Of a DNA stretch of 64,000 nt, positions 6,023-37,189 are shown in pieces. The stretch comes from an uncultured Methanosarcinaceae archaeon. Its GTDB lineage: Archaea; Halobacteriota; Methanosarcinia; Methanosarcinales; Methanosarcinaceae. The stretch spans positions 32,001 through 96,000 of the forward strand of contig CAVTET010000005.1 of NCBI GenBank assembly GCA_963733675.1, read 5' to 3'. The notes beneath the pieces were generated by a model that was not told the DNA's origin, did no database searches, and saw nothing but the letters and a program-made list of their open reading frames with translations. The position numbers and the translations under genes were made by a program. The stretch's first letter is position 1; the number at the start of each line of letters is the position of its first letter.

Positions 6023-6780
6023 TCTCAGTGGGAATAGATGCAGGCTCAGCCACTACAAAGGCAGTCATGGTCATTGGAGGTCAGATTGTTTCCGACAATA
6101 TCAGGCCCACAGCATTCGATTTTGTATCAGTGTCAGAAGCGGCATATAAAAATGTGCTTGCCAATGCCGGAGTCGACGAAGACAATGTTGATCTCGTGTA
6201 TGCAACCGGATACGGGAGGAATAACATAAAGTTTGCCGACAGGGCTATAAGCGAGATCACCGCCCAAGCTAAAGGAATTTATCACCTGTATCCGGAAGTT
6301 AATGGTATAATAGATATCGGAGGCCAGGATAGCAAGGTTATCTCAGTGAATGGGGGAAAAGTAACTGATTTTTTAATGAATGACAAATGCGCAGCTGGCA
6401 CAGGCAAATTCTTAGAGTACACTGCAAGGGCGCTTGAAGTGCCGATAGAGGAGCTGGGGAGTCTGGCGCTTGCTTCAAAAACATCTGCAACCATAACAAA
6501 TATGTGTACTGTTTTTGCAGAGTCCGAGGTAATATCTCTTCGTGCGAGAGGATTTACGAAAGAAAATATCGCAGCTGGACTCATTGAAAGTATTGCTAGA
6601 AGGGGTGCTGTCATGGCCAGGCAATTAGAATTAAAACAAAATGTAGCTTTTGTGGGTGGTGTGGCTAAAAACGCTGGTATTGAAGCAGCGTTGGAAAAAG
6701 AACTGGACATCTTGCTTTATGTGCCACAGGAACCCCAAATTATGGGAGCATTAGGAGCAGCACTGTATGGCATAAGTTAA
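6019..6780 (+). CDS. ATP-dependent activator (HgdC/BadF ASKHA [4Fe-4S] family)
   Basis: GIDAGSATTK, ATGYGR, IDIGGQDSK, MNDKCAAGTG, CTVFAESEV, GGVAKN; ATGA overlap with the upstream gene. Confidence 0.9.
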   Translation: MISVGIDAGSATTKAVMVIGGQIVSDNIRPTAFDFVSVSEAAYKNVLANAGVDEDNVDLVYATGYGRNNIKFADRAISEITAQAKGIYHLYPEVNGIIDIGGQDSKVISVNGGKVTDFLMNDKCAAGTGKFLEYTARALEVPIEELGSLALASKTSATITNMCTVFAESEVISLRARGFTKENIAAGLIESIARRGAVMARQLELKQNVAFVGGVAKNAGIEAALEKELDILLYVPQEPQIMGALGAALYGIS

Positions 6781-18673: not shown

Positions 18674-19007
18674 TGCTGCCTTTTGGTGGAATGCCTTCTT
18701 AAGGCAGCTTTCTCTTGTTGAACATAGTTGGGGATATAAAAGTCATTCCAGCAAAATTGCTCTTTAAAAATACCTGCTCATATGTAAATGTTTATCCTCT
18801 GGAACACAAGTCCCGATATCAACACTCAATTAATTCTCAATCATCGAATTTAAACTTGGGTCATTTATTCCAGTATGTTGTCTTGAATGCAAAACTGAAG
18901 AATATAGCTCTCAAAGTAAAAATTAGCATTTCAAAAACTTAGAAAAATGGACTTGTCATCAAGGATATGCATCTCTCCACTATAGTAAACTCAGCAATTA
19001 ATTGCAG

Positions 19008-19273
19008 AAGATTTCGACAAACCCTTAAATTTAGTCATTTGCTGATAAATGATATATAAAAGGCTTATAAAAATCAAAGGTTTATCGAAATCGCATATAA
19101 AATAATGTTTAATAGGTGATGTATTTTCTTTAATTCCTTTTCCAAGTTTTTTGAAAATATTTATTAGATTGTCAGATATTCTATAGAAAATTTCGATAAA
19201 CCTCTAATTTCAACAAATTGTATATATAGGCTTTACAAACAACCAGCAGAAAATTGAGGTTTATCTAAATCCT
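19008..19273. mobile_element. Two tandem ~85-90 bp IS5-derived MITEs (19008-19093, 19183-19273)
   Basis: Each bounded by ATTTCGA(C/T)AAACC ... GGTTTATC(G/T)AAAT; similar motif forms the left end of the IS5 remnant at 42670. Confidence 0.55.
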
Positions 19274-19769
19274 TTTAAGTTTTGATATTGTTGCTGGGCC
19301 AACCAGAAAAATTAAAATGATTATGAAAGTTATACTGCTCAAGGGGTAGGTGGTATCGCATACTTGATGCAAATTCCAAGTTGAATCTCTGGATACTATA
19401 TGTTTTTTGTTTATTCCGAAGTGTATTTAACCTACTCATAACTTTTTTGAGCATATGATTTAGCAGAAAAATCAACACACTTCCTACAGTCCTAATAGTG
19501 CACTAATCCAGACAGCACGATCTCTGGAAACCATCTGGATTTTACTGAGGTTCTGGGTTTTAAAGTTGTCTGCCTTGAAGCAAAATCGATGCTATAACCC
19601 CTAATTGCAGCTGAAAAGCTTTATTGAAAACAGAATCTTGAAAAAAAAGAGGGAATACAAAAATTCAATTCCGATATCTTGGAAAGGAGCTTAGTATTAA
19701 TAAATTGAAGAAATTTGTAAATTGTAAAAACTTTCAGAAATTTACTATTGATATAACAAAAATTTGGTT

Positions 19770-20113: not shown

Positions 20114-20240
20114 AATCTTTTTGTTATTTGCATTTTTAACCTTGTTTAAGGGTATTCTTTAATAAGGAATAAATTTATAAGCAGTTATGGGCGTTCGATT
20201 TTCTAACTATATGTTGTTTTTATACAGTTATTAACTATTT

Positions 20241-20436
20241 GTGACTATTCAGCCTGGAAAAAACAATACCAATATTCATCTTTACCAAGATTCACTGAGC
20301 TAATACAGTAGGGTGTATTTTATTTAACTGTTGGCTATTGAAGTTATTTTGTAGTTATCAATCAGTTAGTAATCAGAAGCATTAAATTATATCAAAATAG
20401 ATATCATTAACTGATTTTCTGTAAGCTGAATGTTTA
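20241..20436. mobile_element. IS66-like MITE (~195 bp)
   Basis: GTGACTATTCAGCC ... AGCTGAAT ends; colinear with 53934-54129. Confidence 0.6.
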
Positions 20437-23148: not shown

Positions 23149-23371
23149 AAAGACTATACCTCTCGTTTGCCATCAGACAATATATTTGAAGTACATATTT
23201 GAATACTATATATAGCGATTTTATAACATAATTCTTAGATGTATGAAAAAAAATAACGCTATTTGACGTTTTGTACCTTAACCGCATCAGCAGTGCACCG
23301 AAAGTTCTGTAAATTCGGAATTACTTCGTATCCTTTTTTTCACCACAAAAAATAGCATTTATCTTTTTTAC

Positions 23372-23399
23372 TAATGTATATGTTTTGACAAATACATTA
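23372..23399. promoter_or_regulatory. 11-6-11 inverted repeat upstream of the integrase (candidate recombination core site or operator)
   Basis: TAATGTATATG-TTTTGA-CAAATACATTA, arms 10/11 complementary. Confidence 0.45.
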
Positions 23400-23437
23400 A
23401 ATTAGCTGCATAGGTATTTGTTCGGTTGCGATCTCAA

Positions 23438-24722
23438 ATGAAAGTTAATGAGTTAGAGAATGACAAAACAATTAAGGATTGGCTTTCCGGAATCAAGGCA
23501 GCTGATGAAACAAGAAAAGGGTATCTGCAATCAATGCAGCAATTTACTGAGTTCACCCATAAAACTCAATTGCAGCTTATAGAAGAAGCTGAAACAGAGA
23601 TGCAGGCTGGACTCCTGATGCGTGAGAGAAATATAACCAGTTATCTCCGAGAGTTTAGAGAACAATTAGAGAGAAAAGATATCGCTCCACTGACTATTAA
23701 AGGTAGAATGACAGGAGTATGCTCGTTTTATAGATTGTATAATATTCAGTTGCCAGTACTCCCAAAAGGCACAACAAATGCGAGACCAGAATTAAAAAGA
23801 AAGAAAATACCAACTAAAGATGATATAAGAAAAATTCTTAATGTTTGTGATCCCCTTGAGCGTGCTCTTGTGCTAGTGGGTGTTAGTAGTGGATTAAGTG
23901 CTGTGGACTCTCTAATCTGAGAGTCAGTGATTTCGTAGATGGTTATGATCCCCAAACAGGCATAACAACGCTACACCTAGTCAGGAAAAAGAAAAATTAT
24001 GAGTTCTACACATTTTTATCTCCCGAAGCTTCAAAAGCAATTCAGGATTATCTTAACTGGCGAAATAGGGAGCCTAATTATAAAAGCGTAGTAAGAGAGA
24101 AACAACTTGAAAAACAACATGTCACTACTAAAGAAGGATATCTGTTTGTCACCAGAACTGTGCCTTCTGAATATCTAACAGCTAAGAAAACAAAGGATAA
24201 AGAAGATCTAAGAAAGCTAAGTAAAGGAACGATAATATCTATTTATCAGAGACTGAATGAAGAAGCTCAGACAAATTCAGAGAGTGGTGAATACAATATA
24301 AACAGATCACATAATATGAGGAGATTCTTTAATACCACGTTACTCAATGAACGTGCCAGTATATCTTACTAGGACATCAATTGGACGCGACACATGAAGC
24401 ATATTATAGAGCGTCCCCTAAGAAGTTGAAAAAAGAGTATGCAAAATATATCTCATATCTAACTATTGAAAAGTCAATAGATCCTACTGAGCACCCCGCT
24501 TTCATTCAAATGAAGGACGATAAAGATGCATACAAGCGAATTACTGACATTATGACCCAGGAGAGAAGAGACGAAAGATCAGAACTGCAAGAACTCAGGG
24601 CAGAAATTGAAAGAATAAAAAAAATTAATGAAGACACAGCCGAGTTCCAACAGAGGATTCTCAACTTTAAAGATCCAATGGTATTGGAGCAATTAAGAAA
24701 ATTATTGAATGAAAATCAGTAG
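23438..24722 (+). pseudogene. Tyrosine recombinase/integrase, at least two frameshifts
   Basis: SSGLSAVD box, FYTFLSPEA, SHNMRRFF (HxxR), LLGHQLDATHEAYY (His/Tyr box), C-terminal coiled coil. Confidence 0.85.
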
Positions 24723-24849
24723 TTTATAAAATTTATAGTATTATTTTCTTTTGTATGCAGATCTAGCAATAGATTTTTCTTTTGTTCCCCTTTTGTTACC
24801 AAAGTTGTTTTGAAAAATGTTTGTTAAGACTCCTTCTTTTATTTTATTG

Positions 24850-24893
24850 TAGCTGAATTTTCAGTTATTAGTATAGCTGAATTTTTCAGCTTA
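24850..24893. promoter_or_regulatory. Tandem palindromic operator-like sites
   Basis: TAGCTGAATTTTCAGTTA and TAGCTGAATTTTTCAGCTTA directly upstream of the AGGAG RBS of ORF 24913. Confidence 0.5.
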
Positions 24894-24912
24894 AATTTAG
24901 GAGAAATTTTCA

Positions 24913-25215
24913 ATGTACAAAGATATAAGTTTTAAAATAAATTTCAATATAAGTGGAATAGCTGATGCTCTCAAAAGCTTGGTATCAGTCGGCGAACAGG
25001 TCATGAGGTCTATTAAAAATGGGTTCTTCAACGCAATGCACAAGCACGATTTTATAGAGATTCCTTATGCTAACAGGGTGGCAGTCAAGATTGAAGAAGG
25101 AGACGCCATTTTCTGGTGGATTTTGAGTCGCTATCGGGGTAAATATCGTAGGATCGACATAGTTAGGAATATTAGTCTCAATACTGCTCCATCTGCTTGC
25201 AGGAGCGTGGTTTGA
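24913..25215 (+). CDS. Hypothetical mobile-element protein
   Basis: RBS; stop overlaps the next start (TGATG). Confidence 0.6.
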   Translation: MYKDISFKINFNISGIADALKSLVSVGEQVMRSIKNGFFNAMHKHDFIEIPYANRVAVKIEEGDAIFWWILSRYRGKYRRIDIVRNISLNTAPSACRSVV

Positions 25216-25394
25216 TGCAGGCAAAAACTACTTTTAAACCTGAGACGGTTGCTGAAGTCAGCAAAATTTACAATGACTTCAAAGACAGCATCGAATTCAA
25301 AGCTCGTTTTGGGAATCAGGTTGAGCGAGCCTTTGTTCTCACGATTTTTGCAATCGCTGAGGTAAAGCTGGAAGGTGGAACCTATGAGATTTGA
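25215..25394 (+). CDS. Small hypothetical mobile-element protein
   Basis: Translationally coupled start MQAKTTFKPE; overlaps the next ORF. Confidence 0.55.
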   Translation: MQAKTTFKPETVAEVSKIYNDFKDSIEFKARFGNQVERAFVLTIFAIAEVKLEGGTYEI

Positions 25395-25963
25395 TGAGAC
25401 TAAGAGCTTTGACTTCAGATCCTTGTGCCAACCGACCACTTTTGAGCAAGATTCGGTCACAAAGAAATTAATCACGACTATTTTTCTCAAAAAACCGAGG
25501 TCTGGTCTTGATTTTATTAGGATAAGAGAGGAGCCAGATTGGACAGTTGTAATCTACCTTATGGACATGGGAAGAGAGGAGGAAAAAATATGCCGTCGCC
25601 CCAGACATCATACCTGAAGTCATGGATACTGGGAGACTGAAGCGGGTCAGACTTTATACCGGAATCACATTTAATGGCGACGATCTCTTTCTATCTGACA
25701 TTCCCTTCCCAGATTCCGATGGGAAAGAAAATGAATACAATAGAACCCGTGCCATAGCCTATGAAATGGCAAAGCACAAATGGGTTAAGCTTCAGGTCAA
25801 CAGGGCGCTTGAGGCGTACGAAATCGTTGAAACGAAGAGCAATCTCCCTGAGCCGATCTGGCCTGAGGAGCTATCAGATATCATAAAAGCCTTAGAGATC
25901 TGCTTTAAAGACAAACTGATAGACTCCGTTGACCATCCTGTGCTGAAGAAGGTTGAGGGGTGA
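25384..25963 (+). pseudogene. Unknown protein immediately upstream of PolA, frameshift in an A-run near 25585
   Basis: Joining frames gives ~190 aa: TTIFLKKP..DFIRIR...EEKYAVAPDII...LYTGI...FLSDIPFPDSDG..N...KWVKL..N..LEAYE...PEPIWPE...CFKDKLIDSVDHPVLKK. Confidence 0.7.
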
Positions 25964-25969
25964 AATTTG

Positions 25970-27695
25970 ATGTTGCCTCAGTTTAATCGAATTCACGTTA
26001 TTGACTTCGAGTTTGTGGCTGATCCAGGAGAAAAGCTTAAACCTGTGTGCCTCGTTGCACACGAATTTAAATCAGGAAAAACGTACAAAATATGGCTAGA
26101 AGGGCAAGCACCTTCTTTTAAACCTTTTTTTCCTTTTAGGGAGGAAGATCTTTTTGTGTCATACTATAGTTCTGCTGAATGGGGATGTTATCTAGCACTA
26201 AATTGGCTTTTACCTGTTAATGTGGTAGACTTATTCGCAGAATTCCGGGTTTTAACTAATGGCTTGCCAGGGATCTCCAATAGCCTACTTGGAGCTTGTC
26301 AGAGATTTGGTATCAATACTATTTCTGCATCTGAAAAGGAAAATGCGAGACTTCGGATCTTACAGGGTTCCCCATTTACCGAGGAAGAGAAAACGGAGAT
26401 TCTAGATTACTGCGAGAGTGATGTTCTAGAAACCGCAAAGCTGTTTCGTAGAATGCTTCCTTATATTGATATCCCGAGAGCTTTGATTCGAGGTAGATAT
26501 ATGGAGACCATAGCCACGATGGAACATATTGGAATCCCTATTGATGTAGAAATTTTAAAACTTCTAAAAGAAAACTGGGATCAAATCCAAGAGAGATTAA
26601 TCTCAGAAATCGATAAAGATTACGGAGTTTATGAAGGGACTTCATTTAAGGTTGCTAAATTTGAGGAATATCTTGTTAATAACAACATTGTTTGGCCTAG
26701 GACTGAGAGAGGAAATCTGGAACTTAAAGATGACACATTCAAAGAGATGTTGCATTAGGTACCCCAGGCTTCAGAGGCTACGAGATCTTAGGTACATTTT
26801 AGGGCAGCTCAGATTCTCGAATCTTCTAGTGGGAGCTGACAGTAGAAATAGGTGTCTACTTTCACCTTTTGGTTCTAAAACTGGTAGGAATCAACCGAGC
26901 ACAAGTAAATTCATATTTGGGCCTGCAGTCTGGCTTCGAAGTCTGATTAAACCAGAAAAAGGGAAGGTGTTAGCTTATATAGATTTTGAACAGCAAGAAT
27001 TTGCAATTGCTGCAGCACTCTCAAAGGATAAAGGGATGAAGGCTGCATATGCAACTGGTGATCCTTACTTAGCTTTTGGCAAGCAGGCAGGAGCAATTCC
27101 ACAGGACTCGATTAAAGAAACTCATAAGGCTGAGAGAGACTGTTTCAAACAATGCGTGCTGGGCGTGCAATATGGCATGGGTGCGGACAGCTTGGCTATG
27201 AGAATAGGGAAGTCAAGGCCGTATGCTGAAGAATTCCTTCATCATCACAAACGAGTTTACAGCAAATATTGGAGCTGGAGTGAACATGTGCTTAATACAA
27301 CTCTTTTCAATAGAAGAATCACGACTTGCTACGGCTGGCAATTGAACGTTATTGGATCTGAAAGGAAGGAAGCTAGGACAATCAAGAACTTCCCCTGCCA
27401 AGCTACAAGCGCAGAAATCCTACGAGTGGCTTGTATTCTTTTAGTGAAAAATGGGATAAAAATCATAGCTTCTGTGCACGATGCTATCCTAATCGAGTGT
27501 GAGGAAGAAGGTGCAGATGAAACTATTAAAAGAGCCCAAGAACTGATGACTCTAGCGTCTACTGAAGTATCGGGCCCTGATAATCCCATCCGAACAGAAG
27601 TGGAAATAATCCGATACCCCAATAGATACATGGACAAGAGAGGGTTAGAAACCTGGAACATTATAATGAATATTTTGAAAGAGTTGAAAGATTAA
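25970..27695 (+). pseudogene. Family A DNA polymerase (3'-5' exonuclease + polymerase, no 5' nuclease), single frameshift near 26750
   Basis: ExoI VIDFEF, ExoIII YCESDV; KTGRNQP; motif A YIDFEQQEF; motif B ERDCFKQCVLGVQYGMG; NFPCQ; motif C SVHDAILIE. Confidence 0.9.
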
Positions 27696-27726
27696 ACTAT
27701 GGGCATATTTGTCAAGTCTTGGTGCA

Positions 27727-27880
27727 AACAGTGGCAAATCTGGCACCTAACTGGTGACAAATTAGACACCTAACTGATGACAGATTTGCCACCACCTACG
27801 GAGTAGGCATTCTTGACATCAGTTTCAATGAAAAACGGGATCTACAGGCTTCTCATCCTAAAAAAACAAACTGGTGACAA
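27727..27880. repeat. Iteron-like cluster: three ~23-bp direct repeats with palindromic cores plus a partial fourth
   Basis: AACA-GTGGCAAATCTGGCACCT / AACTGGTGACAAATTAGACACCT / AACTGATGACAGATTTGCCACCA; AACTGGTGACAA at 27869. Confidence 0.7.
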
Positions 27881-27925
27881 GAAAGCCTACACCGTACAAT
27901 AGATTGTATTTATTGGAGTATACTT

Positions 27926-28261
27926 ATGTATGTATTAGAAAGCAAGGGTAAGAATAAGAGCAGGAATATACCTAAAGAAAAATTAGATAGTATATTTATC
28001 CCTCCTATGCCTTGGAGCTGGATACAGAAACTTCAGGCTCCTAAAGGGGGAGCCACTTTCAGGGTAGCCCATTATATTTGGTTCCAGAAAGGCGTGAAAG
28101 GGACCAAAGAAAGTCTTGTTATCTCAAGTAGTGGACTAAACAATTTTTACAAAATGGATAAGCGTACTTTCATTAGGGCTCTCCACGAATTAGAAAGCTT
28201 AGGGATGATTACTGTTGAAAGGCAGGCAGGGAAGAGCCCAAAAGTTACAATAAAAATTTAA
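27926..28261 (+). CDS. Winged-helix DNA-binding protein (replication-initiator-like)
   Basis: C-terminal wHTH pattern MDKRTFIRALHELESLGMITVERQAGKSPKVTI; follows the repeat cluster. Confidence 0.7.
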   Translation: MYVLESKGKNKSRNIPKEKLDSIFIPPMPWSWIQKLQAPKGGATFRVAHYIWFQKGVKGTKESLVISSSGLNNFYKMDKRTFIRALHELESLGMITVERQAGKSPKVTIKI

Positions 28262-28381
28262 AGGTCTTGCTTTTTATTAAGACCATCGAGTCCTTTTTAG
28301 TGTCTTTCCTTTCGATGTTTAGTAATGTTAAGTAAGAATAAAAAATGTGCGATGTATTATTAATTATTTTAATAAGAAAAT

Positions 28382-29069
28382 AAAATTGCTATTTAACACT
28401 TTCAAGAACTCACCTAGAGTTTACGAAAATGAATAGATTATGATAGATTCTCAGAAAATCTAGAACCCAAAAGCAATATCAATACAACCTTTTACTCGTA
28501 TATTGACACATAAAGATGTGATATGATTACTTATATTCTCAATTTCTAAATGAGATTTCATTTACTTTTTTATTACTTGAACTATCTTGCTAATCCTATT
28601 CTAGATTTTGTTTACAGAGTACCATAACCTGACTTATTCTCAGCCCCTTCATTGAGTTTTTGATATTAGGTATAAACTTATCTAATTCAAGAAAATGCCT
28701 AGAATAGCCCCACGTTCGTTCCTGTATAACAAGTCATAGGTGAAAGTTTTAAAAGCTATAAGCAGTCAATAGCTCAAAATACCCATTCCATTTGTGAGTT
28801 CATAACTCGGTTTCATAGATAAACAAACTAAAAAAAATATTAAGCATAACACTCAATTATATTTATTAAAAAAAGTAAAAACGAGATCAAAATGACAAGA
28901 TCTTCAAAATTGACTAAAGAGTTACAACAGCAAATCGGTGAGAATGTTGCATTGGGACTTACTTATGCTTTAGCAGCAGCATCCGCAGGAATAACGTATC
29001 AAACATTTAATGACTGGATGAATAAAGGAAAAAATTCAAAATCTGGGGAGTATTTTGAGTTCTATAAAC
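28382..29069 (+). repeat. 688-bp inverted repeat, left arm (partner 35487-36174)
   Basis: Reverse complement of 35487-36174; both arms 688 bp; no mismatch seen by eye. Confidence 0.92.
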
Positions 29070-29560: not shown

Positions 29561-29884
29561 TTAGATATAGTCTACTGCCAGTTTCTTACTGGCCACCAAA
29601 TCATCTAAACAAAATCCCAGTGAAGCAAAATTCTGGACCAATTCGTTATAGGTTTCTTCAAAAGCTATAAAGACGCCTGGCTCATCGTAGTTTTGGGCTC
29701 CATTGACCAGGAACTCCATGGCCATAAGTGTCTTTCCTGAACCTGCACTTCCGTATACAAGTGTAGTACGACCCTTTGGCAATCCACCATCAGTTAGTTC
29801 ATCAAGACCAGTTATGCCAATTGGAGATTTTTCAAGATGCGCTTCTGTTAAAGTTGGGCTCTCTTCTTCAATCATCAAATGCAC
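29561..29884 (-). pseudogene. kaiC: KaiC-family ATPase, N-terminal fragment
   Basis: LEKSPIGITGLDELTDGGLPKGRTTLVYGSAGSGKT...EPGVFIAFEET; ends after ~105 aa. Confidence 0.8.
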
Positions 29885-30133: not shown

Positions 30134-30589
30134 TTAAATTGAAGCAGTTGATGGCTCTTTTTGTTTACCAACCAGAGAAAACTTATCCATGATTTCTTTC
30201 CGTATTATATCGAAGTCCTTGACGATTATCTCAACCGTCTCATTCGTGTTCTCTGAAACTGTATTAATTTTTCTATAGACCCGCCGTCCAAACTCGTCAG
30301 GAAATCATCTTTCCAAAATCCACATGCAAACTTGACAGTTTCCAGCTTTTGCTGCTGCGTTTAAACTCTCAAGAAGTTTCTTAGCCCCTTCAGCATTGCA
30401 TTTTTGAATATATTGAGCAAACAAAAAATACTTCCCAGATTTCTCTGTCTGCCCCCTTTTCAGCCATGAGTTTAAACTTTGGTAGATTACACCCGCAGCT
30501 TCGGCAGCTAGAGCATAAGTCAACCCAAGAGATACACCACCACCGATTTCCTGTTGCATTTGAAGCGTGAGTTTCGAAGGACGTGGCAT
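30134..30589 (-). pseudogene. HTH/terminase-small-subunit-like gene, in-frame TGA at 30305-30307
   Basis: MPRPSKLT...LGLTYALAAEAAG...CQVCMWILER*FPDEFGRRVY...; paralog of 35230-35664. Confidence 0.75.
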
Positions 30590-31582: not shown

Positions 31583-31965
31583 TCACTGTCGGGCCATGAC
31601 AATACGCATCTCAGTTTCCTTGTCTTCTATCAGCTGGCCGCTCACGTCCACTATCACGCTATGGATCTTGCCTGTGAACTCGGGGACGGTAGTCTGGTGT
31701 GACTGGTGATCTATGAGCTGAGCCACAGGTTACTCCACCAGTTAACCCTAACACAAGTGGAATAGTTACAGGTACATCAATTTGGCCGACTAACTTCCCA
31801 TCTATAAAGAGCTTAGCAATTCCAGGTGAACCCTTACCATTAGCAAAATCTGGCTTACCAGTCACCTCGAACTCGAACCCGAGTCGATGTCTCCCTTCGG
31901 GAACATTCTCATTGGACTCTACATGATACAAGGCTCTAGATACGTAATTGTGCACCCAGTGAAGT
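31583..31965 (-). pseudogene. Arylsulfatase C-terminal fragment
   Basis: HNYV...VPEGRHRLGFEFE.TG.PD...GKGSPG..KLFIDG...GLTGGVTCG...FTGKIHSV.VDVSG.LIED...MARQ. Confidence 0.65.
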
Positions 31966-32670
31966 TTCCCATTTTACCGAATTTTTCAGAAAGCACCTGA
32001 ACTTTGAAGTTAGCAAGTTCTTCTACCTTGCTTATTCCCATCTTTTTTAGTGCTTCAGTTGTTTTTTTACCAATGTAAGGTACTACAGATACCGGTAGTG
32101 GGAAAAGGAAGTTTCTGACATTTTCAGGTCTAACAACTGTTAACCCATCGGGTTTCTGAAACCCAGATGCTATTTTGGCTACCAATTTATTTGGACCAAT
32201 ACCAACTGAACATGTAATTTTTTCTTGCTGCTTAATTCCATCCTTAATCGTGCGTGCACAGAGAACAGCATCTTCAAAATTACTGATATTAAATGGTACA
32301 AGATAGGCTTCATCTATGCTAACTTACTCAAATTTTTCAGAAAATTCTCGCAGAATCGACATCACATTGAATGATGCTGTTTTATACAACTCCATATTCA
32401 CAGGCAAAAAAAGTGCAACCGGGACACAATTTATGGGCCCTACTTACCAGCATTGCGGAATGTACTACAGATTCCCTTGCTTCGTATGAACATGTGCTTA
32501 CAACGCCGCTCCTAAGTGTTGGATCAAATCCAATAACAGCACACAGAGCCTTCCCTCTTAAATTAGGGTGCTCTTTTACTTCCACTGATGCAAAAAAGCT
32601 ATCCATGTCAACATGCAAGACTATCCGCCTTTCATGGTTATCTGTTTCAGAATTTGAGGCAGCATCATTG
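31960..32670 (-). pseudogene. dinB: DNA polymerase IV (DinB) paralog, fragmented and 3'-truncated
   Basis: HVDMDSFFASVE, GVVSTCSYEAR, SIDEAY, TCSVGIGPNKLVAKIAS, KPDGLTVV; stops and frameshifts. Confidence 0.85.
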
Positions 32671-32917
32671 TAAGATGGTTCAAATAACTGATAAAATGTT
32701 GCGAAAAATCTAGTGACCTTATATATAAGATTGTAGGAGAGCTAGTTGAAATACAGAACTTTGTTAGGCTTAAATTAGCTTTTTCGACTACATTAGAAGC
32801 TCACTATATTAAGGACCAAAGGAAAATGATGTTTATTATGAGTATAATTTGACTCTAAAGATGAGGCTATAAAAAGGCGTTATTTCATAACCCACCATCA
32901 TTTTTCTTAATATGTAC

Positions 32918-34030
32918 TTAAATAAAATCAGTAATCAGAGTTTGTCTTTCGTCTCTTTCTCTGAGATTCGAAACTCCTACTCCTATAAGCCTGAGCTTTT
33001 GCCTTCCAATAAACTCTGAAAGTAGCTGCATAACTATCCGTTTAATAACAAAAATATCAGAAGTCCAGACTGAGGTAGTCTTTGAGCGTGTATATGTGGA
33101 AAAATCCTCGAAGCGCACTTTAAGAGTTACTGTTTTGAAAAGGAAGCTATGTCTGAGGAGAGCCCTATGAACGCTCTCTGCAAGCATGTCCAGAGAGCCT
33201 GCAATTTTTACAGGGTCATTTGTATCCTCTTCAAATGTTCCGCTCCTGCTCATTGACTTTACAGCTTCCTCCCATCCCTTTACTTCACTGAAATCTAGAC
33301 CATAAGCCACCTGCTTCATCCAGAGACCCATTTTCCCGAACTTTTCAGAGAGTATCTGTACATCGCAGTTTGCTAGATCCTCCACTTTTGTAATCTCCAT
33401 CAATTTAAGGATCTTGGTTGTTTTTTCACCTATACCAGGTATTTTTGAGACGTCTAGCGGGTAAAGGAACTCTTGAACATCTTCTGGCCTGACAACCGTA
33501 AGGCCATTAGGTTTATTAAACTTTGAAGCGACCTTTGCAATAAGTTTGTTTGGTCCAACCCCTACCGAACATGTGATTCTTTCTTGTCTCTTGATCTCGT
33601 CCTTTAATCTAAGTGCAATTATGGCAGCCTCTTCAAAGTTTCTTATTTCGGGTCCAGGCACTAGAAAAGCTTCGTCTACGCTATACTGCTGGAACTTCTC
33701 GGCAAAACCCTTCATTATCTCCATTACGTTTGCAGAAACCTGGGCATACAGCTTCATATTTACAGGTACAAAGGCAGCATCTGGACAGAGCTTATAAGCC
33801 TGTGAAATTGGCATCGCCGAATGTATACCATATTTTCTTGCCTCATATGAGCACGTGCTCACGACCCCTCTCCCTTCACCTCCCTTTGGATCTGAACCAA
33901 CGACAACGGGTAGACCTTTAAGTTCCGGCTTTTCTCTGGTCTCCACAGATGCAAAAAACGAATCCATGTCTACGTGGAGAACAATCCGCTTTTCGGTGCA
34001 GTTTGTATGATGATTGAGCGACAACATCAA
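32918..34030 (-). CDS. dinB: DNA polymerase IV (Y family)
   Basis: LHVDMDSFFASVE, STCSYEARKYGI, SVDEAF, KLIAKVAS, little-finger KVRFEDF...LRLIGVGVSNL; intact. Confidence 0.93.
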   Translation of the reverse strand: MMLSLNHHTNCTEKRIVLHVDMDSFFASVETREKPELKGLPVVVGSDPKGGEGRGVVSTCSYEARKYGIHSAMPISQAYKLCPDAAFVPVNMKLYAQVSANVMEIMKGFAEKFQQYSVDEAFLVPGPEIRNFEEAAIIALRLKDEIKRQERITCSVGVGPNKLIAKVASKFNKPNGLTVVRPEDVQEFLYPLDVSKIPGIGEKTTKILKLMEITKVEDLANCDVQILSEKFGKMGLWMKQVAYGLDFSEVKGWEEAVKSMSRSGTFEEDTNDPVKIAGSLDMLAESVHRALLRHSFLFKTVTLKVRFEDFSTYTRSKTTSVWTSDIFVIKRIVMQLLSEFIGRQKLRLIGVGVSNLRERDERQTLITDFI

Positions 34031-35229: not shown

Positions 35230-35664
35230 TTAATTAGGATTTATATAATTATTAAACTTTGCTATAATTTGTTTTCTAATTATATCTGCATCGTTGACTA
35301 TTATCTCAACATTTTCGTTTTTATTCTCGGAAATTGCATTAATTATCCTATATTCACGCCTTCCAAAATCGTTAGGGAACCATCTCTCAAAAATCCACAT
35401 GCAAACTTGGCAATTTCCCAAATCAGCAGCATCATTAAGGCTCTGTAGACATTTCAGGGCCCCGTCAGCATTGCATTTTATGATGTGTTTATAGAACTCA
35501 AAATACTCCCCAGATTTTGAATTTTTTCCTTTATTCATCCAGTCATTAAATGTTTGATACGTTATTCCTGCGGATGCTGCTGCTAAAGCATAAGTAAGTC
35601 CCAATGCAACATTCTCACCGATTTGCTGTTGTAACTCTTTAGTCAATTTTGAAGATCTTGTCAT
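35230..35664 (-). CDS. HTH protein resembling phage terminase small subunit
   Basis: SKLT...I...V.LG.TY..AA..AGITYQTF..W..KG...G.Y.EF...A...W.FER.FP..FGR pattern recalled from TerS-like proteins. Confidence 0.6.
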   Translation of the reverse strand: MTRSSKLTKELQQQIGENVALGLTYALAAASAGITYQTFNDWMNKGKNSKSGEYFEFYKHIIKCNADGALKCLQSLNDAADLGNCQVCMWIFERWFPNDFGRREYRIINAISENKNENVEIIVNDADIIRKQIIAKFNNYINPN

Positions 35665-36174
35665 TTTGATCTCGTTTTTACTTTTTTTAATAAATATAAT
35701 TGAGTGTTATGCTTAATATTTTTTTTAGTTTGTTTATCTATGAAACCGAGTTATGAACTCACAAATGGAATGGGTATTTTGAGCTATTGACTGCTTATAG
35801 CTTTTAAAACTTTCACCTATGACTTGTTATACAGGAACGAACGTGGGGCTATTCTAGGCATTTTCTTGAATTAGATAAGTTTATACCTAATATCAAAAAC
35901 TCAATGAAGGGGCTGAGAATAAGTCAGGTTATGGTACTCTGTAAACAAAATCTAGAATAGGATTAGCAAGATAGTTCAAGTAATAAAAAAGTAAATGAAA
36001 TCTCATTTAGAAATTGAGAATATAAGTAATCATATCACATCTTTATGTGTCAATATACGAGTAAAAGGTTGTATTGATATTGCTTTTGGGTTCTAGATTT
36101 TCTGAGAATCTATCATAATCTATTCATTTTCGTAAACTCTAGGTGAGTTCTTGAAAGTGTTAAATAGCAATTTT
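35487..36174 (-). repeat. 688-bp inverted repeat, right arm
   Basis: Reverse complement of 28382-29069. Confidence 0.92.
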
Positions 36175-37189
36175 TATTAATATGATTAATATTGTGTACT
36201 TTTAGTCTTTTATTTTATAACGGTCATGTTATTACCTATTGACAACTTCTACAATCCCCTAGAGCGATTACACTGGCAATATTATTTTTATACATCCAGA
36301 AAATTATGAATATAACAATGATAACGTTCACAATGTCGGTTATAAAGACTACAGCGGTACTATAGCACATTTATTTAATACTATTTGGCAGTGAACCCTA
36401 TGGATATAGCGGTGTACCTTTTGGATATAACTATGTATGGGATAGTGGACCTTCTAGCATAGCAGAAATACCAAATTCAGATTATCATTGTTCCACTGCA
36501 AAGGTTTCTTCGCCTGGGGGTTCCAAGGCCAGATTGAGTAGTCCCAAATCTAAGGATTCTATAAGGTAGAAGAAACATAAAAAATATTCCAAACATCAAA
36601 AGGCGAGAAAAAAATTGCCAAGTGTAGAGTAAAAAATGCCTTGATTTTTCAGTTCCATTAATTGGAAGCAGCACCCAAAAAAAGTTGTATCATTGCTGCA
36701 AGTTTTATGGATAATAAGCTCTAATAACAAAAATAAAATGAGTAGAAGGATCTACGGTCCATATTTGCTTAATCCTGCAATAATATTTCTCAATTGAATG
36801 CTCATAATATATATATATTTTTAAATTAGGAAATAAAAGAGTTAAATTTCTAAAAGTTAATACCTATTCAGATATCTATAAGTACTGACAAAAACCTGTG
36901 CATCAATGAAACAATAAATATAGACACATTATCAGCATGATCATGGACTTAGAATCCTTTTTTTATAGCGAAAGAAAAAAGATATAGAGTCAATCAGATA
37001 TTACAGAACTTTCGGACACTCCATGCAATCAATCAAAAACCAGAAAGTAAAAAAAGTCTCATATCTAGAGAAAACTGTATTATAGTCAATCGGGCAATTT
37101 TATTCAGGAAAAACCTGAAAGCATTCAGTGATCAATTATCAAAATATTTATCTGTAGTCAAATGTAGCTGAGTTTTTAATCGTGAGGAA

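Follow-up and report, generated by a model that had tools for sequence, protein, structure and literature searches.

The stretch of DNA analysed here (the window) comprises 64,000 nucleotides from an uncultured Methanosarcinaceae archaeon (assembly GCA_963733675.1, contig CAVTET010000005.1, positions 32,001 to 96,000); all coordinates are those of the window unless another contig is named. It contains a family-A DNA polymerase gene (PolA) within an integrated element of about 4.9 kb, in which the order of components is a tyrosine integrase, the remnant of a 168-amino-acid (aa) open reading frame (ORF), a small gene designated cl1, PolA, a set of 23-bp repeats and a second small gene, cl2 (Table 1). 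The element was delimited through comparison with an intact copy in a related genome (L024, contig C73 of G032); identity was 89% over 4835 aligned bases, and homology ended at both borders in blastn and MAFFT comparisons. Because the flanks of the window copy and the G032 copy differed beyond those points, the shared DNA was interpreted as a mobile unit. It takes the form of a site-specific integrative element, with a tyrosine recombinase at one end and borders defined by the comparison of two genomes.

Table 1. Features of the integrated element and of the adjoining DNA in the window
Feature	Position	Strand	Remark
Integrated element, ~4.9 kb	23385-28269		DNA in common with intact copy L024, 7236-12276, in related genome
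Tyrosine integrase pseudogene	23426-24722	+	Three ORF pieces: 23426-23920, 24160-24372, 24381-24722
168-aa ORF remnant	24901-25215	+	tblastn: residues 61-168 at 50% identity
cl1, ~190 aa	25375-25963	+	Reads as two ORFs, 25375-25617 and 25622-25963
PolA pseudogene	25967-27695	+	One gene from two overlapping ORFs, 25967-26758 (263 aa) and 26631-27695 (354 aa); +1 insertion at 26750/26751
ExoI, DFEF	26003-26014	+	Located by script
ExoIII, YCESD (Yx3D)	26408-26422	+	Located by script
KTGR	26877-26888	+	Located by script
Motif A, DFEQQE	26982-26999	+	Located by script
Motif B, RDCFKQCVLGVQYG	27135-27176	+	Located by script
Motif C, VHD	27474-27482	+	Located by script
Iteron-like repeats	27731-27880		Three tandem 23-bp units, 27731-27799; extra AACTGGTGACAA copy, 27869-27880
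cl2, 111 aa, winged helix	27926-28261	+	Appears intact; 81% identical to ortholog
Terminase-small-subunit-like (TerS-like) 5' fragment, 61 aa	28892-29077	+	Adjoins element, outside DNA shared with L024
TerS-like gene	30305-30589	-	
TerS-like gene	35230-35664	-	
Inverted duplicate, 712 bp	28358-29069 and 35487-36191		98.7% identical; holds TerS-like 5' part and upstream region
KaiC/RecA-like ATPase, N-terminal fragment	29561-29884	-	106 aa scanned; DNA 87% identical to C1:476695-476946
DinB second-copy fragments	31919-32618	-	DNA over 31968-32878 is 88% identical to C4:154474-155383 of window genome
Y-family polymerase (DinB/IMS), intact	32918-34030	-	369 aa scanned
MITE-like repeats	18997-19092, 19176-19282, 20238-20436, 23290-23386		90-200 bp

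The polymerase gene and the state of the element

The second polymerase ORF matched Pfam family PF00476 (DNA_pol_A; 2.7e-27, 96 bits against a cut-off of 34.3), while the first matched no family in the Pfam scan. All of the exonuclease and polymerase motifs were located. In a family alignment of 41 sequences, residues D338, E343, R389, K393, H503 and D504 of the polymerase were invariant, and the exonuclease residues D12, E14 and D151 were at least 90% conserved. The third position of motif B is leucine in the window (...KQCVLGVQYG); this residue, L397, was at least 90% conserved in alignment A1 and invariant in A2. Domain scans of the window copy and of its ortholog found no 5'-3' nuclease. 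The initial annotation, which had reported intact motifs, the lack of a 5'-3' nuclease and a single frameshift near 26749, was accurate on each point, the extra base being placed within a base or two of its estimate.

That base was identified through comparison with an intact ortholog of 574 aa in the related genome (G032:C73), which is 88–89% identical to the window polymerase. Where the ortholog reads FKEM-CIW-YPQL, the window reads atg-T-tgc; an extra T at 26750/26751 shifts the frame, and the zero frame ends at 26758. Besides this T, there were no stop substitutions and no further indels relative to the ortholog. The read-level check that the initial annotation had proposed was carried out with assembled short-read contigs from four public runs, belonging to two studies, which were compared with the region. 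No insertion or deletion relative to the assembly was found at 26750 in contigs of the four runs, and the position was bridged gap-free by contigs of X1 (record 8, 24467-28400) and X2 (record 14, 24920-27455). X1 may be the source sample and is therefore not an independent witness; since contigs of both runs bridged the site without a gap, the frameshift is real in that population. The window polymerase is a pseudogene, recently inactivated by one +1 insertion. Programmed frameshifting, or pyrrolysine read-through of the TAG at 26756, was ruled out, as the ortholog is unshifted and a further TAG follows soon in the zero frame.

The integrase is similarly degraded. Its pieces were 93–96% identical to an intact integrase of 432 aa in L021 and L024, which matched PF00589 (2.3e-10) and phrog_1 (2e-20). 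The window integrase has lost 1 nt at 23908 and 13 nt at 24363, and X1 contigs were gap-free at both places. The 168-aa ORF remnant differed from L024 by many deletions and stop codons, and its intact form matched no Pfam or PHROG family; this ORF is lineage-specific and lies outside the conserved core described below. The break in cl1 was of another kind. The A at 25583 that splits the gene was absent from contigs of all four runs, and without it the frame is open for 192–195 aa; this frameshift is false, a single-base assembly error. A base at 27860 was likewise absent from three of the four runs. Some of the 'pseudogenes' in this assembly are thus single-base errors, so that pseudogene calls in this genome need read-level checks, and some breaks in other PolA loci may also be artefacts. 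For the same reason, a fused 684-aa reading of the copy on contig C4 was considered suspect, and was not used as evidence.

The left flank consists of archaeal housekeeping genes, namely phenylalanyl-tRNA synthetase (PheRS), a class-I tRNA synthetase, tRNA-Glu and LSm. Short-read contigs bridged the left border at 23385 (X2 record 9) and the right border at 28269 (X1 record 8, X2 record 16 and X5 record 32). Given these flanks and bridged borders, the region is neither a contaminant nor a chimeric join, which were possibilities raised by the initial annotation.

The window genome carries nine PolA-bearing loci of this family, most of them fragmentary or containing stops. The order integrase, cl1, PolA, cl2 was kept in all five further loci compared from the window genome and G032, although the integrase was unmatched in one of these. 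In the intact copy, the cl1 stop codon overlaps the polymerase start. Just upstream of the intact L024 integrase, at 6130-6693 of that locus, are the remains of another PolA element (the C-terminal part of PolA and a piece of cl2), which indicates that the elements pile up in tandem. Intergenic repeats resembling miniature inverted-repeat transposable elements (MITEs), with dozens of genomic copies at 70–88% identity, were observed in four places in the window, one of them immediately left of the element border.

Distribution of the gene trio and placement of the polymerase

Relatives of the polymerase number in the thousands. A scan of one genome per species, using a profile from a 12-row alignment, returned 558 relatives, and neighbourhoods were compared for the best 80 of these, which were 46–100% identical. 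The 80 loci came from Methanosarcinaceae, Methanoregula, Methanoperedens and at least a dozen bacterial phyla, and the trio cl1-PolA-cl2 recurred across many bacterial phyla and four methanogen lineages. Clustering of ORFs placed a cl1 homolog directly upstream of PolA in 79 loci; in the single exception, PolA starts 40 nt from a contig end. A cl2 homolog lay directly downstream in 72 loci by strict criteria and in 78 by clustering. A tyrosine integrase occurred within 7 kb in 53 of 80 loci, at a median distance of 1.5 kb; among the 36 loci whose flanks each extended for 5 kb or more, 30 had one. Beyond cl1, cl2 and the integrase, no cluster outside the polymerase gene reached 13 of the 80 loci. 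In several bacteria the whole unit, cl1-PolA-cl2-(small helix-turn-helix gene)-integrase, spans only about 4.2–4.4 kb.

No helicase or primase cluster was found in four or more of the 80 loci, and further ORFs scanned had no helicase; neither family was found among ORFs scanned in or beside the window element or the intact ortholog element. The observation in the initial annotation that the polymerase has no primase or helicase beside it therefore extends from the window to the ortholog and to the conserved neighbourhood. Its proposal of a compact mobile-element PolA clade was likewise borne out, by the conserved neighbourhood across 80 loci and the nearby integrase. Within archaea, the family was present in 7 of 36 other genomes of the genus and in none of 24 from other families of the order, while a sample at phylum level contained it in 5 of 400 archaeal genomes (E <= 1e-80). 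This patchy distribution fits a mobile element. Fusions to other domains occur in some relatives of the polymerase (P0206, P0231 and P0152), the partner being a Toprim-like DUF3854 region (1407 aa), Toprim_2 at the C-terminus or the helical domain of a 5-hmdU DNA kinase; certain lineages thus have a polymerase joined physically to primase-like or DNA-modification modules.

Family-A polymerases have been sorted into 19 clusters by Czernecki et al. (2023, Nucleic Acids Research; PMC10201439), and the statements that follow refer to the passages of that paper drawn upon here. Two clusters are reported from Methanomicrobia, these being #8 (Aquificae/apicoplast-like) and #15, the CHEAPs (for 'Cellular' Highly Efficient Auxiliary Polymerases). 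The CHEAPs are described as having leucine at motif-B position 3, intact motifs, a mainly proteobacterial range and 'no known partners'. Of all the subfamilies, theirs is reported to lie nearest to the staphylococcal CCPols; a bacterial member is an efficient proofreading polymerase, the subfamily is marked by a 'broken thumb' bent back on a C-terminal helix, and its reference enzyme is that of Ideonella dechloratans. Because the leucine at motif-B position 3 and the range of Proteobacteria plus Methanomicrobia match this description, the window polymerase is most probably a CHEAP (cluster #15), a placement made by described traits. Matches in Burkholderiales related to Ideonella (Roseateles, Limnohabitans and Polaromonas) were 48–50% identical, which supports the placement indirectly. 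The premise of the initial annotation, that PolA is not a normal archaeal gene, is weakened to this extent: two PolA subfamilies had already been reported from Methanomicrobia in the same text, and the surprise is correspondingly smaller.

The genus also has a second type of family-A polymerase, observed in split form at G000:C1:611349-613239 and G000:C8:6482-8199, where it is 25% identical to the intact G032 ortholog, and intact in other genomes of the genus (L012-L015, 551–586 aa). It has phenylalanine at motif-B position 3 and resembles the Taq, Klenow and apicoplast enzymes at 1e-57 to 1e-52; by sequence it is probably the published cluster #8. Clustering with ordinary Pol I, an outcome that the initial annotation had named as contrary to its proposal, was not observed for the window polymerase; its best solved relative matched at only 9e-16.

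A quick IQ-TREE phylogeny was estimated from 81 rows, comprising 75 of the 80 loci, the window copy (with X where it was read through), a second copy from the window genome and four distant PolAs as outgroup. L025, L027, L073, L086 and L088 were left out, having no single ORF of 540–680 aa spanning the match. A branch with SH-aLRT support of 100% separated all 66 bacterial rows from all archaeal rows, in a sample that is biased towards the 80 sequences closest to an archaeal query. The archaeal rows were not nested among the bacterial rows, and the tree settled neither the relations of the archaeal lineages nor the root. A bacterial origin, considered probable in the initial annotation, is therefore unsupported; the topology fits a single old transfer between domains, in either direction.

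Predicted replication of the element and alternative explanations

The spacer between PolA and cl2 is 230 bp long and holds three tandem 23-bp units plus a fourth, partial copy. Of six matches to AACTGRTGACA in the window (allowing one mismatch), four fell within 130 bp (27749-27879), compared with an expectation of 2.2 for the whole window. At the corresponding place, six other archaeal loci had arrays with a period of 21–23 bp whose sequences all differed, and Tandem Repeats Finder (TRF) identified an array just after PolA in 18 of the 80 loci, bacteria included (0.025 expected per region from the locus background). Iteron origins or operators are typically laid out in this way, with a winged-helix gene next to tandem repeats that span roughly two helical turns; the 23-bp repeats are a candidate origin or operator. 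The adjacent cl2 product was modelled with a predicted local distance difference test score (pLDDT) of about 95 over its winged-helix part. Its Pfam matches, to MarR and helix-turn-helix families, were weak (0.0016–0.0035, below cut-off), and its best fold matches in the PDB (E = 0.015; CodY, TubR, ORC2 and the plasmid RepA N-domain) were generic winged helices. Neither the Pfam scan nor the generic fold assigned cl2 to a known Rep family. It is a candidate iteron-binding initiator or regulator.

The cl1 product was also modelled confidently (pLDDT 92). One of 63 cl1 members matched a single unnamed PHROG (0.0046). A Foldseek search of viral models returned three matches at E <= 0.001, all to uncharacterised phage proteins, followed by phage proteins annotated as SSBs (proteins that bind single-stranded DNA) at E = 0.015–0.08; the ESM Atlas gave no lead, its best score of 0.77 being to unnamed clusters. 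These models suggest, without amounting to proof, a phage-type fold for binding single-stranded DNA (ssDNA). When PolA and cl1 were predicted as a complex, the score was 0.77, against 0.08 for the best of three controls; of 80 solved complexes 58 attained that mark, as did 2 of 110 mismatched pairs, counts that hold only roughly because our own alignments were used. At least 64% of contacts agreed between runs, and the partner had a pLDDT of at least 76. The predicted interface comprised a conserved N-terminal peptide of cl1 (residues 2–19) and, on the PolA side, a surface including the family-invariant residues G175, S351 and W436. It is predicted, therefore, that cl1 docks on the polymerase through its N-terminal peptide.

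The polymerase gene is probably the replicase, now recently inactivated, of an integrative element of about 4.9 kb that combines a tyrosine integrase with a cassette of cl1, PolA, 21–23-bp iterons and cl2, and which would constitute a self-contained episomal replicon. The element would excise and then replicate as a small circle. The winged-helix cl2 protein would bind the iterons and open the origin; cl1, with its fold weakly like that of gp32-type phage SSBs, would coat the single strand and hold the polymerase through its conserved N-terminal peptide; and the proofreading PolA would copy the circle by strand displacement, so that no helicase would be needed. The most speculative step concerns the primer. 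By analogy with the staphylococcal CcPol-MP complex, the PolA-cl1 pair might make its own, although this seems doubtful; alternatively, priming could rely on host primase or a transcript. It is equally tentative that the cassette is a minimal replicon able to dispense with the host replisome, in which cl2 would open the iterons while PolA, tethered to a gp32-like cl1, would prime and copy the circle. The occurrence of the cassette in hosts with unrelated replisomes is an argument for such independence, not proof of it; host-independence would explain how the trio could work both in bacteria (with DnaB and DnaG) and in methanogens (with MCM and PriSL).

Several results weigh against the self-contained replicon. 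We infer replication, iteron binding, ssDNA binding and priming alike. The comparison of cl1 with SSBs had no counterpart at sequence level, since it matched no family in Pfam, PHROG, NCBIfam or PADLOC, and its profile gave one chance-level match among PDB sequences (E = 0.57). Among PDB structures, Foldseek found nothing at E <= 0.001; gp32 of T4 and the RB69 SSB matched weakly (E = 0.24, TM 0.22–0.27). No natural fusion of cl1 or of cl2 with PolA was present among 270 family proteins. The fold of cl2, being generic, does not separate an initiator from a repressor. Not one 10-mer was common to both border zones, whether of the window or of L024, so that no attachment (att) repeats were found, and none of 29 short whole contigs had the terminal overlap (at least 12 nt) of a circular form. 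Finally, in viral contig L104 the order is integrase, then cl1-PolA-cl2, a 152-aa ORF and a gpA-type large terminase (2.4e-80); with the trio just upstream of a large terminase, the cassette serves a real prophage in some hosts.

This last observation also favours the likeliest alternative, in which a head-tailed provirus, or a virus satellite using the capsids of a helper, would replicate by means of the cassette, and the adjacent TerS-like gene would redirect packaging, as it is redirected by the satellites known as SaPIs and PICIs. In four loci of the window genome a TerS-like gene follows cl2 by 0.6–0.9 kb on the same strand, and one also follows cl2 in L027. Thirteen viral contigs in IMG/VR carry the PolA family at 37% identity or more, with cl2 in all 13 and cl1 in nine; in the remaining four, PolA starts no more than about 70 nt from the contig end. 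Against this, the shared DNA stops at 28269, just after cl2, and nearby TerS-like pieces are about 66% identical where the element is 89% identical. Near the Methanosarcina copies there was no sign of a capsid, portal or large-terminase gene; in G032 the full-length TerS-like copy is followed by an ORF for a surface protein, and nothing is conserved beside 25 TerS-like loci except the PolA module (six loci) and a 133-aa ORF on the opposite strand (nine loci). Nor does the integrase, at a median of 1.5 kb from the core, leave room for a virion module. In the records of named phages and plasmids there were matches to 660 of the former and 18 of the latter, all below 60% identity, and the best matches listed were 22–29% identical with no close context; no close relative was found in 50,697 phage records, the best matches listed there being 22–25% identical. 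A provirus or satellite module is accordingly improbable.

It is much less probable that the polymerase is a cellular auxiliary repair or replication enzyme, acquired by the host and with incidental neighbours. The published characterisation of CHEAPs as cellular, partnerless and including an efficient proofreading bacterial enzyme would recommend this (PMC10201439, in the passages cited), but the host carries multiple decaying copies, the distribution is patchy, an integrase, iterons and two conserved small genes accompany it in tight linkage, and the same 4.9-kb unit is found in two genomes with different flanks. There is similarly little reason to regard the three-gene operon as an anti-virus defence system with a PolA-like enzyme. 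The operon is compact, patchy and mobile, and a bacterial PolA matched the PADLOC family RTasPolA (DRT) at 1.2e-26; that score (92 bits), however, was no better than a generic Pfam PolA match (92–96 bits), cl1, cl2 and the integrase had no defence-family match beyond a chance-level one for the integrase (E = 0.0049), no reverse transcriptase is present, and the iterons and intact proofreading replicase point to replication. An origin of the gene in bacterial contamination, a chimeric join or a false frameshift can be dismissed despite the single-base errors at 25583 and 27860, since gap-free contigs from independent runs span the frameshift site as well as the two borders, archaeal housekeeping genes flank the element on a contig of 346 kb, and related copies exist in other genomes of the genus.

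Whether the TerS-like fragment beside the window element belongs to it is uncertain. The TerS-like gene (about 150 aa, phrog_4102) has 25 long copies plus fragments in the 3.9-Mb genome, and full-length copies matched that family at 2.9e-18 to 8.8e-23. Copies occur without a large terminase beside them, and one also follows the genus's other PolA type, at G000:C1:612-615k; these genes may be a target for integration, serve the packaging of a satellite or form a small repeat element. The inverted duplicate (Table 1) brackets a 6.4-kb segment containing the KaiC fragment, a TerS-like gene, pieces of DinB, the intact DinB gene that adjoins them and a SRAP gene. In a related genome (L025) there is one copy of the duplicate, with the DinB stretch in the opposite orientation, and the segment seems to have been inverted by recombination between the duplicate copies.

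Relation to known systems and implications

The self-contained replicon proposed here resembles several known systems in part. Iteron-controlled plasmids combine a winged-helix Rep protein with tandem repeats of about 20 bp, and recruit the helicase, primase and polymerase of the host. The present elements share the tandem repeats of 21–23 bp, or about two helical turns, beside a winged-helix gene, with a repeat sequence that varies by lineage; they differ in carrying their own polymerase and a candidate SSB, and cl2 matches no Rep family. Pipolins, with a primer-independent PolB, and casposons, also with PolB, are integrative elements with a polymerase of their own, and the pipolin enzyme primes itself. 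Like these, the present element carries the gene for a DNA polymerase of its own in place of a Rep-helicase, but the enzyme is of family A rather than B, the element is far smaller (about 4.4–5 kb) and its integration enzymes differ from those of casposons.

The primer-independent piPolB is also mentioned in the part of Rice (2023; PMC10061031) drawn upon here, which describes PolA-SSB primases on elements of Bacillota, in the order polymerase, small OB-fold protein and helicase, and states that the staphylococcal CcPol-MP complex primes de novo. CcPol-MP belongs to the staphylococcal cassette chromosome SCCmec (Bebel et al. 2020, eLife; PMC7581432). As far as these accounts are cited here, the parallel consists of a mobile-element PolA beside a small protein of no known sequence family, which is predicted to contact the polymerase and possibly binds ssDNA, and of a site-specific recombinase on the same element. 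There are also differences. The small gene is upstream of the polymerase here and downstream there; no Cch2-like helicase was found in the window element, in its ortholog or in four or more of the 80 loci; the polymerase keeps its full length and its exonuclease is intact; and the predicted contact is between the N-terminal peptide of the small protein and the polymerase domain, whereas in CcPol-MP it involves the truncated N-terminus of the polymerase. The recombinase is of the tyrosine type rather than a large serine type, and the hosts span many bacterial phyla and archaea.

The correspondence with CHEAPs, as these are described in the cited passages of PMC10201439, is closest. Both are enzymes of about 575–600 aa with a 3'-5' exonuclease and a polymerase domain, no 5'-3' nuclease, conserved catalytic motifs and leucine at motif-B position 3; both occur in Proteobacteria and Methanomicrobia, and neither replaces the host replicase. 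The difference lies in the setting, since CHEAPs were published as cellular and partnerless whereas here the polymerase is almost always flanked by two small genes, iterons and an integrase. It is because of these neighbours that the CHEAP-type enzyme of the window looks element-borne, and the 'cellular' CHEAP polymerases are probably element-borne.

That methanogens possess family-A polymerases is already in print (PMC10201439, in the part cited). No published account of the genomic setting of CHEAP-type PolA was found in the literature searched, the scope of which did not extend to supplementary files, and in the same literature the full name of the CHEAPs was used only by the founding paper of 2023. 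What is new here is the architecture of three genes plus iterons, together with the predicted contact between polymerase and cl1. If the trio is self-sufficient, it would answer the question of how a mobile element can be run by a polymerase that has neither primase nor helicase, and would extend the idea of PolA-SSB primases beyond Bacillota. The trio would then be a replication cassette of very small size, perhaps functional in Bacteria and Archaea alike, and could be useful for methanogen shuttle vectors. Should the tentative reading as a self-priming minimal replicon prove true, the cassette would be the second primase-polymerase based on PolA, with a structure different from that of the first, and no smaller cross-domain replicon would be known.

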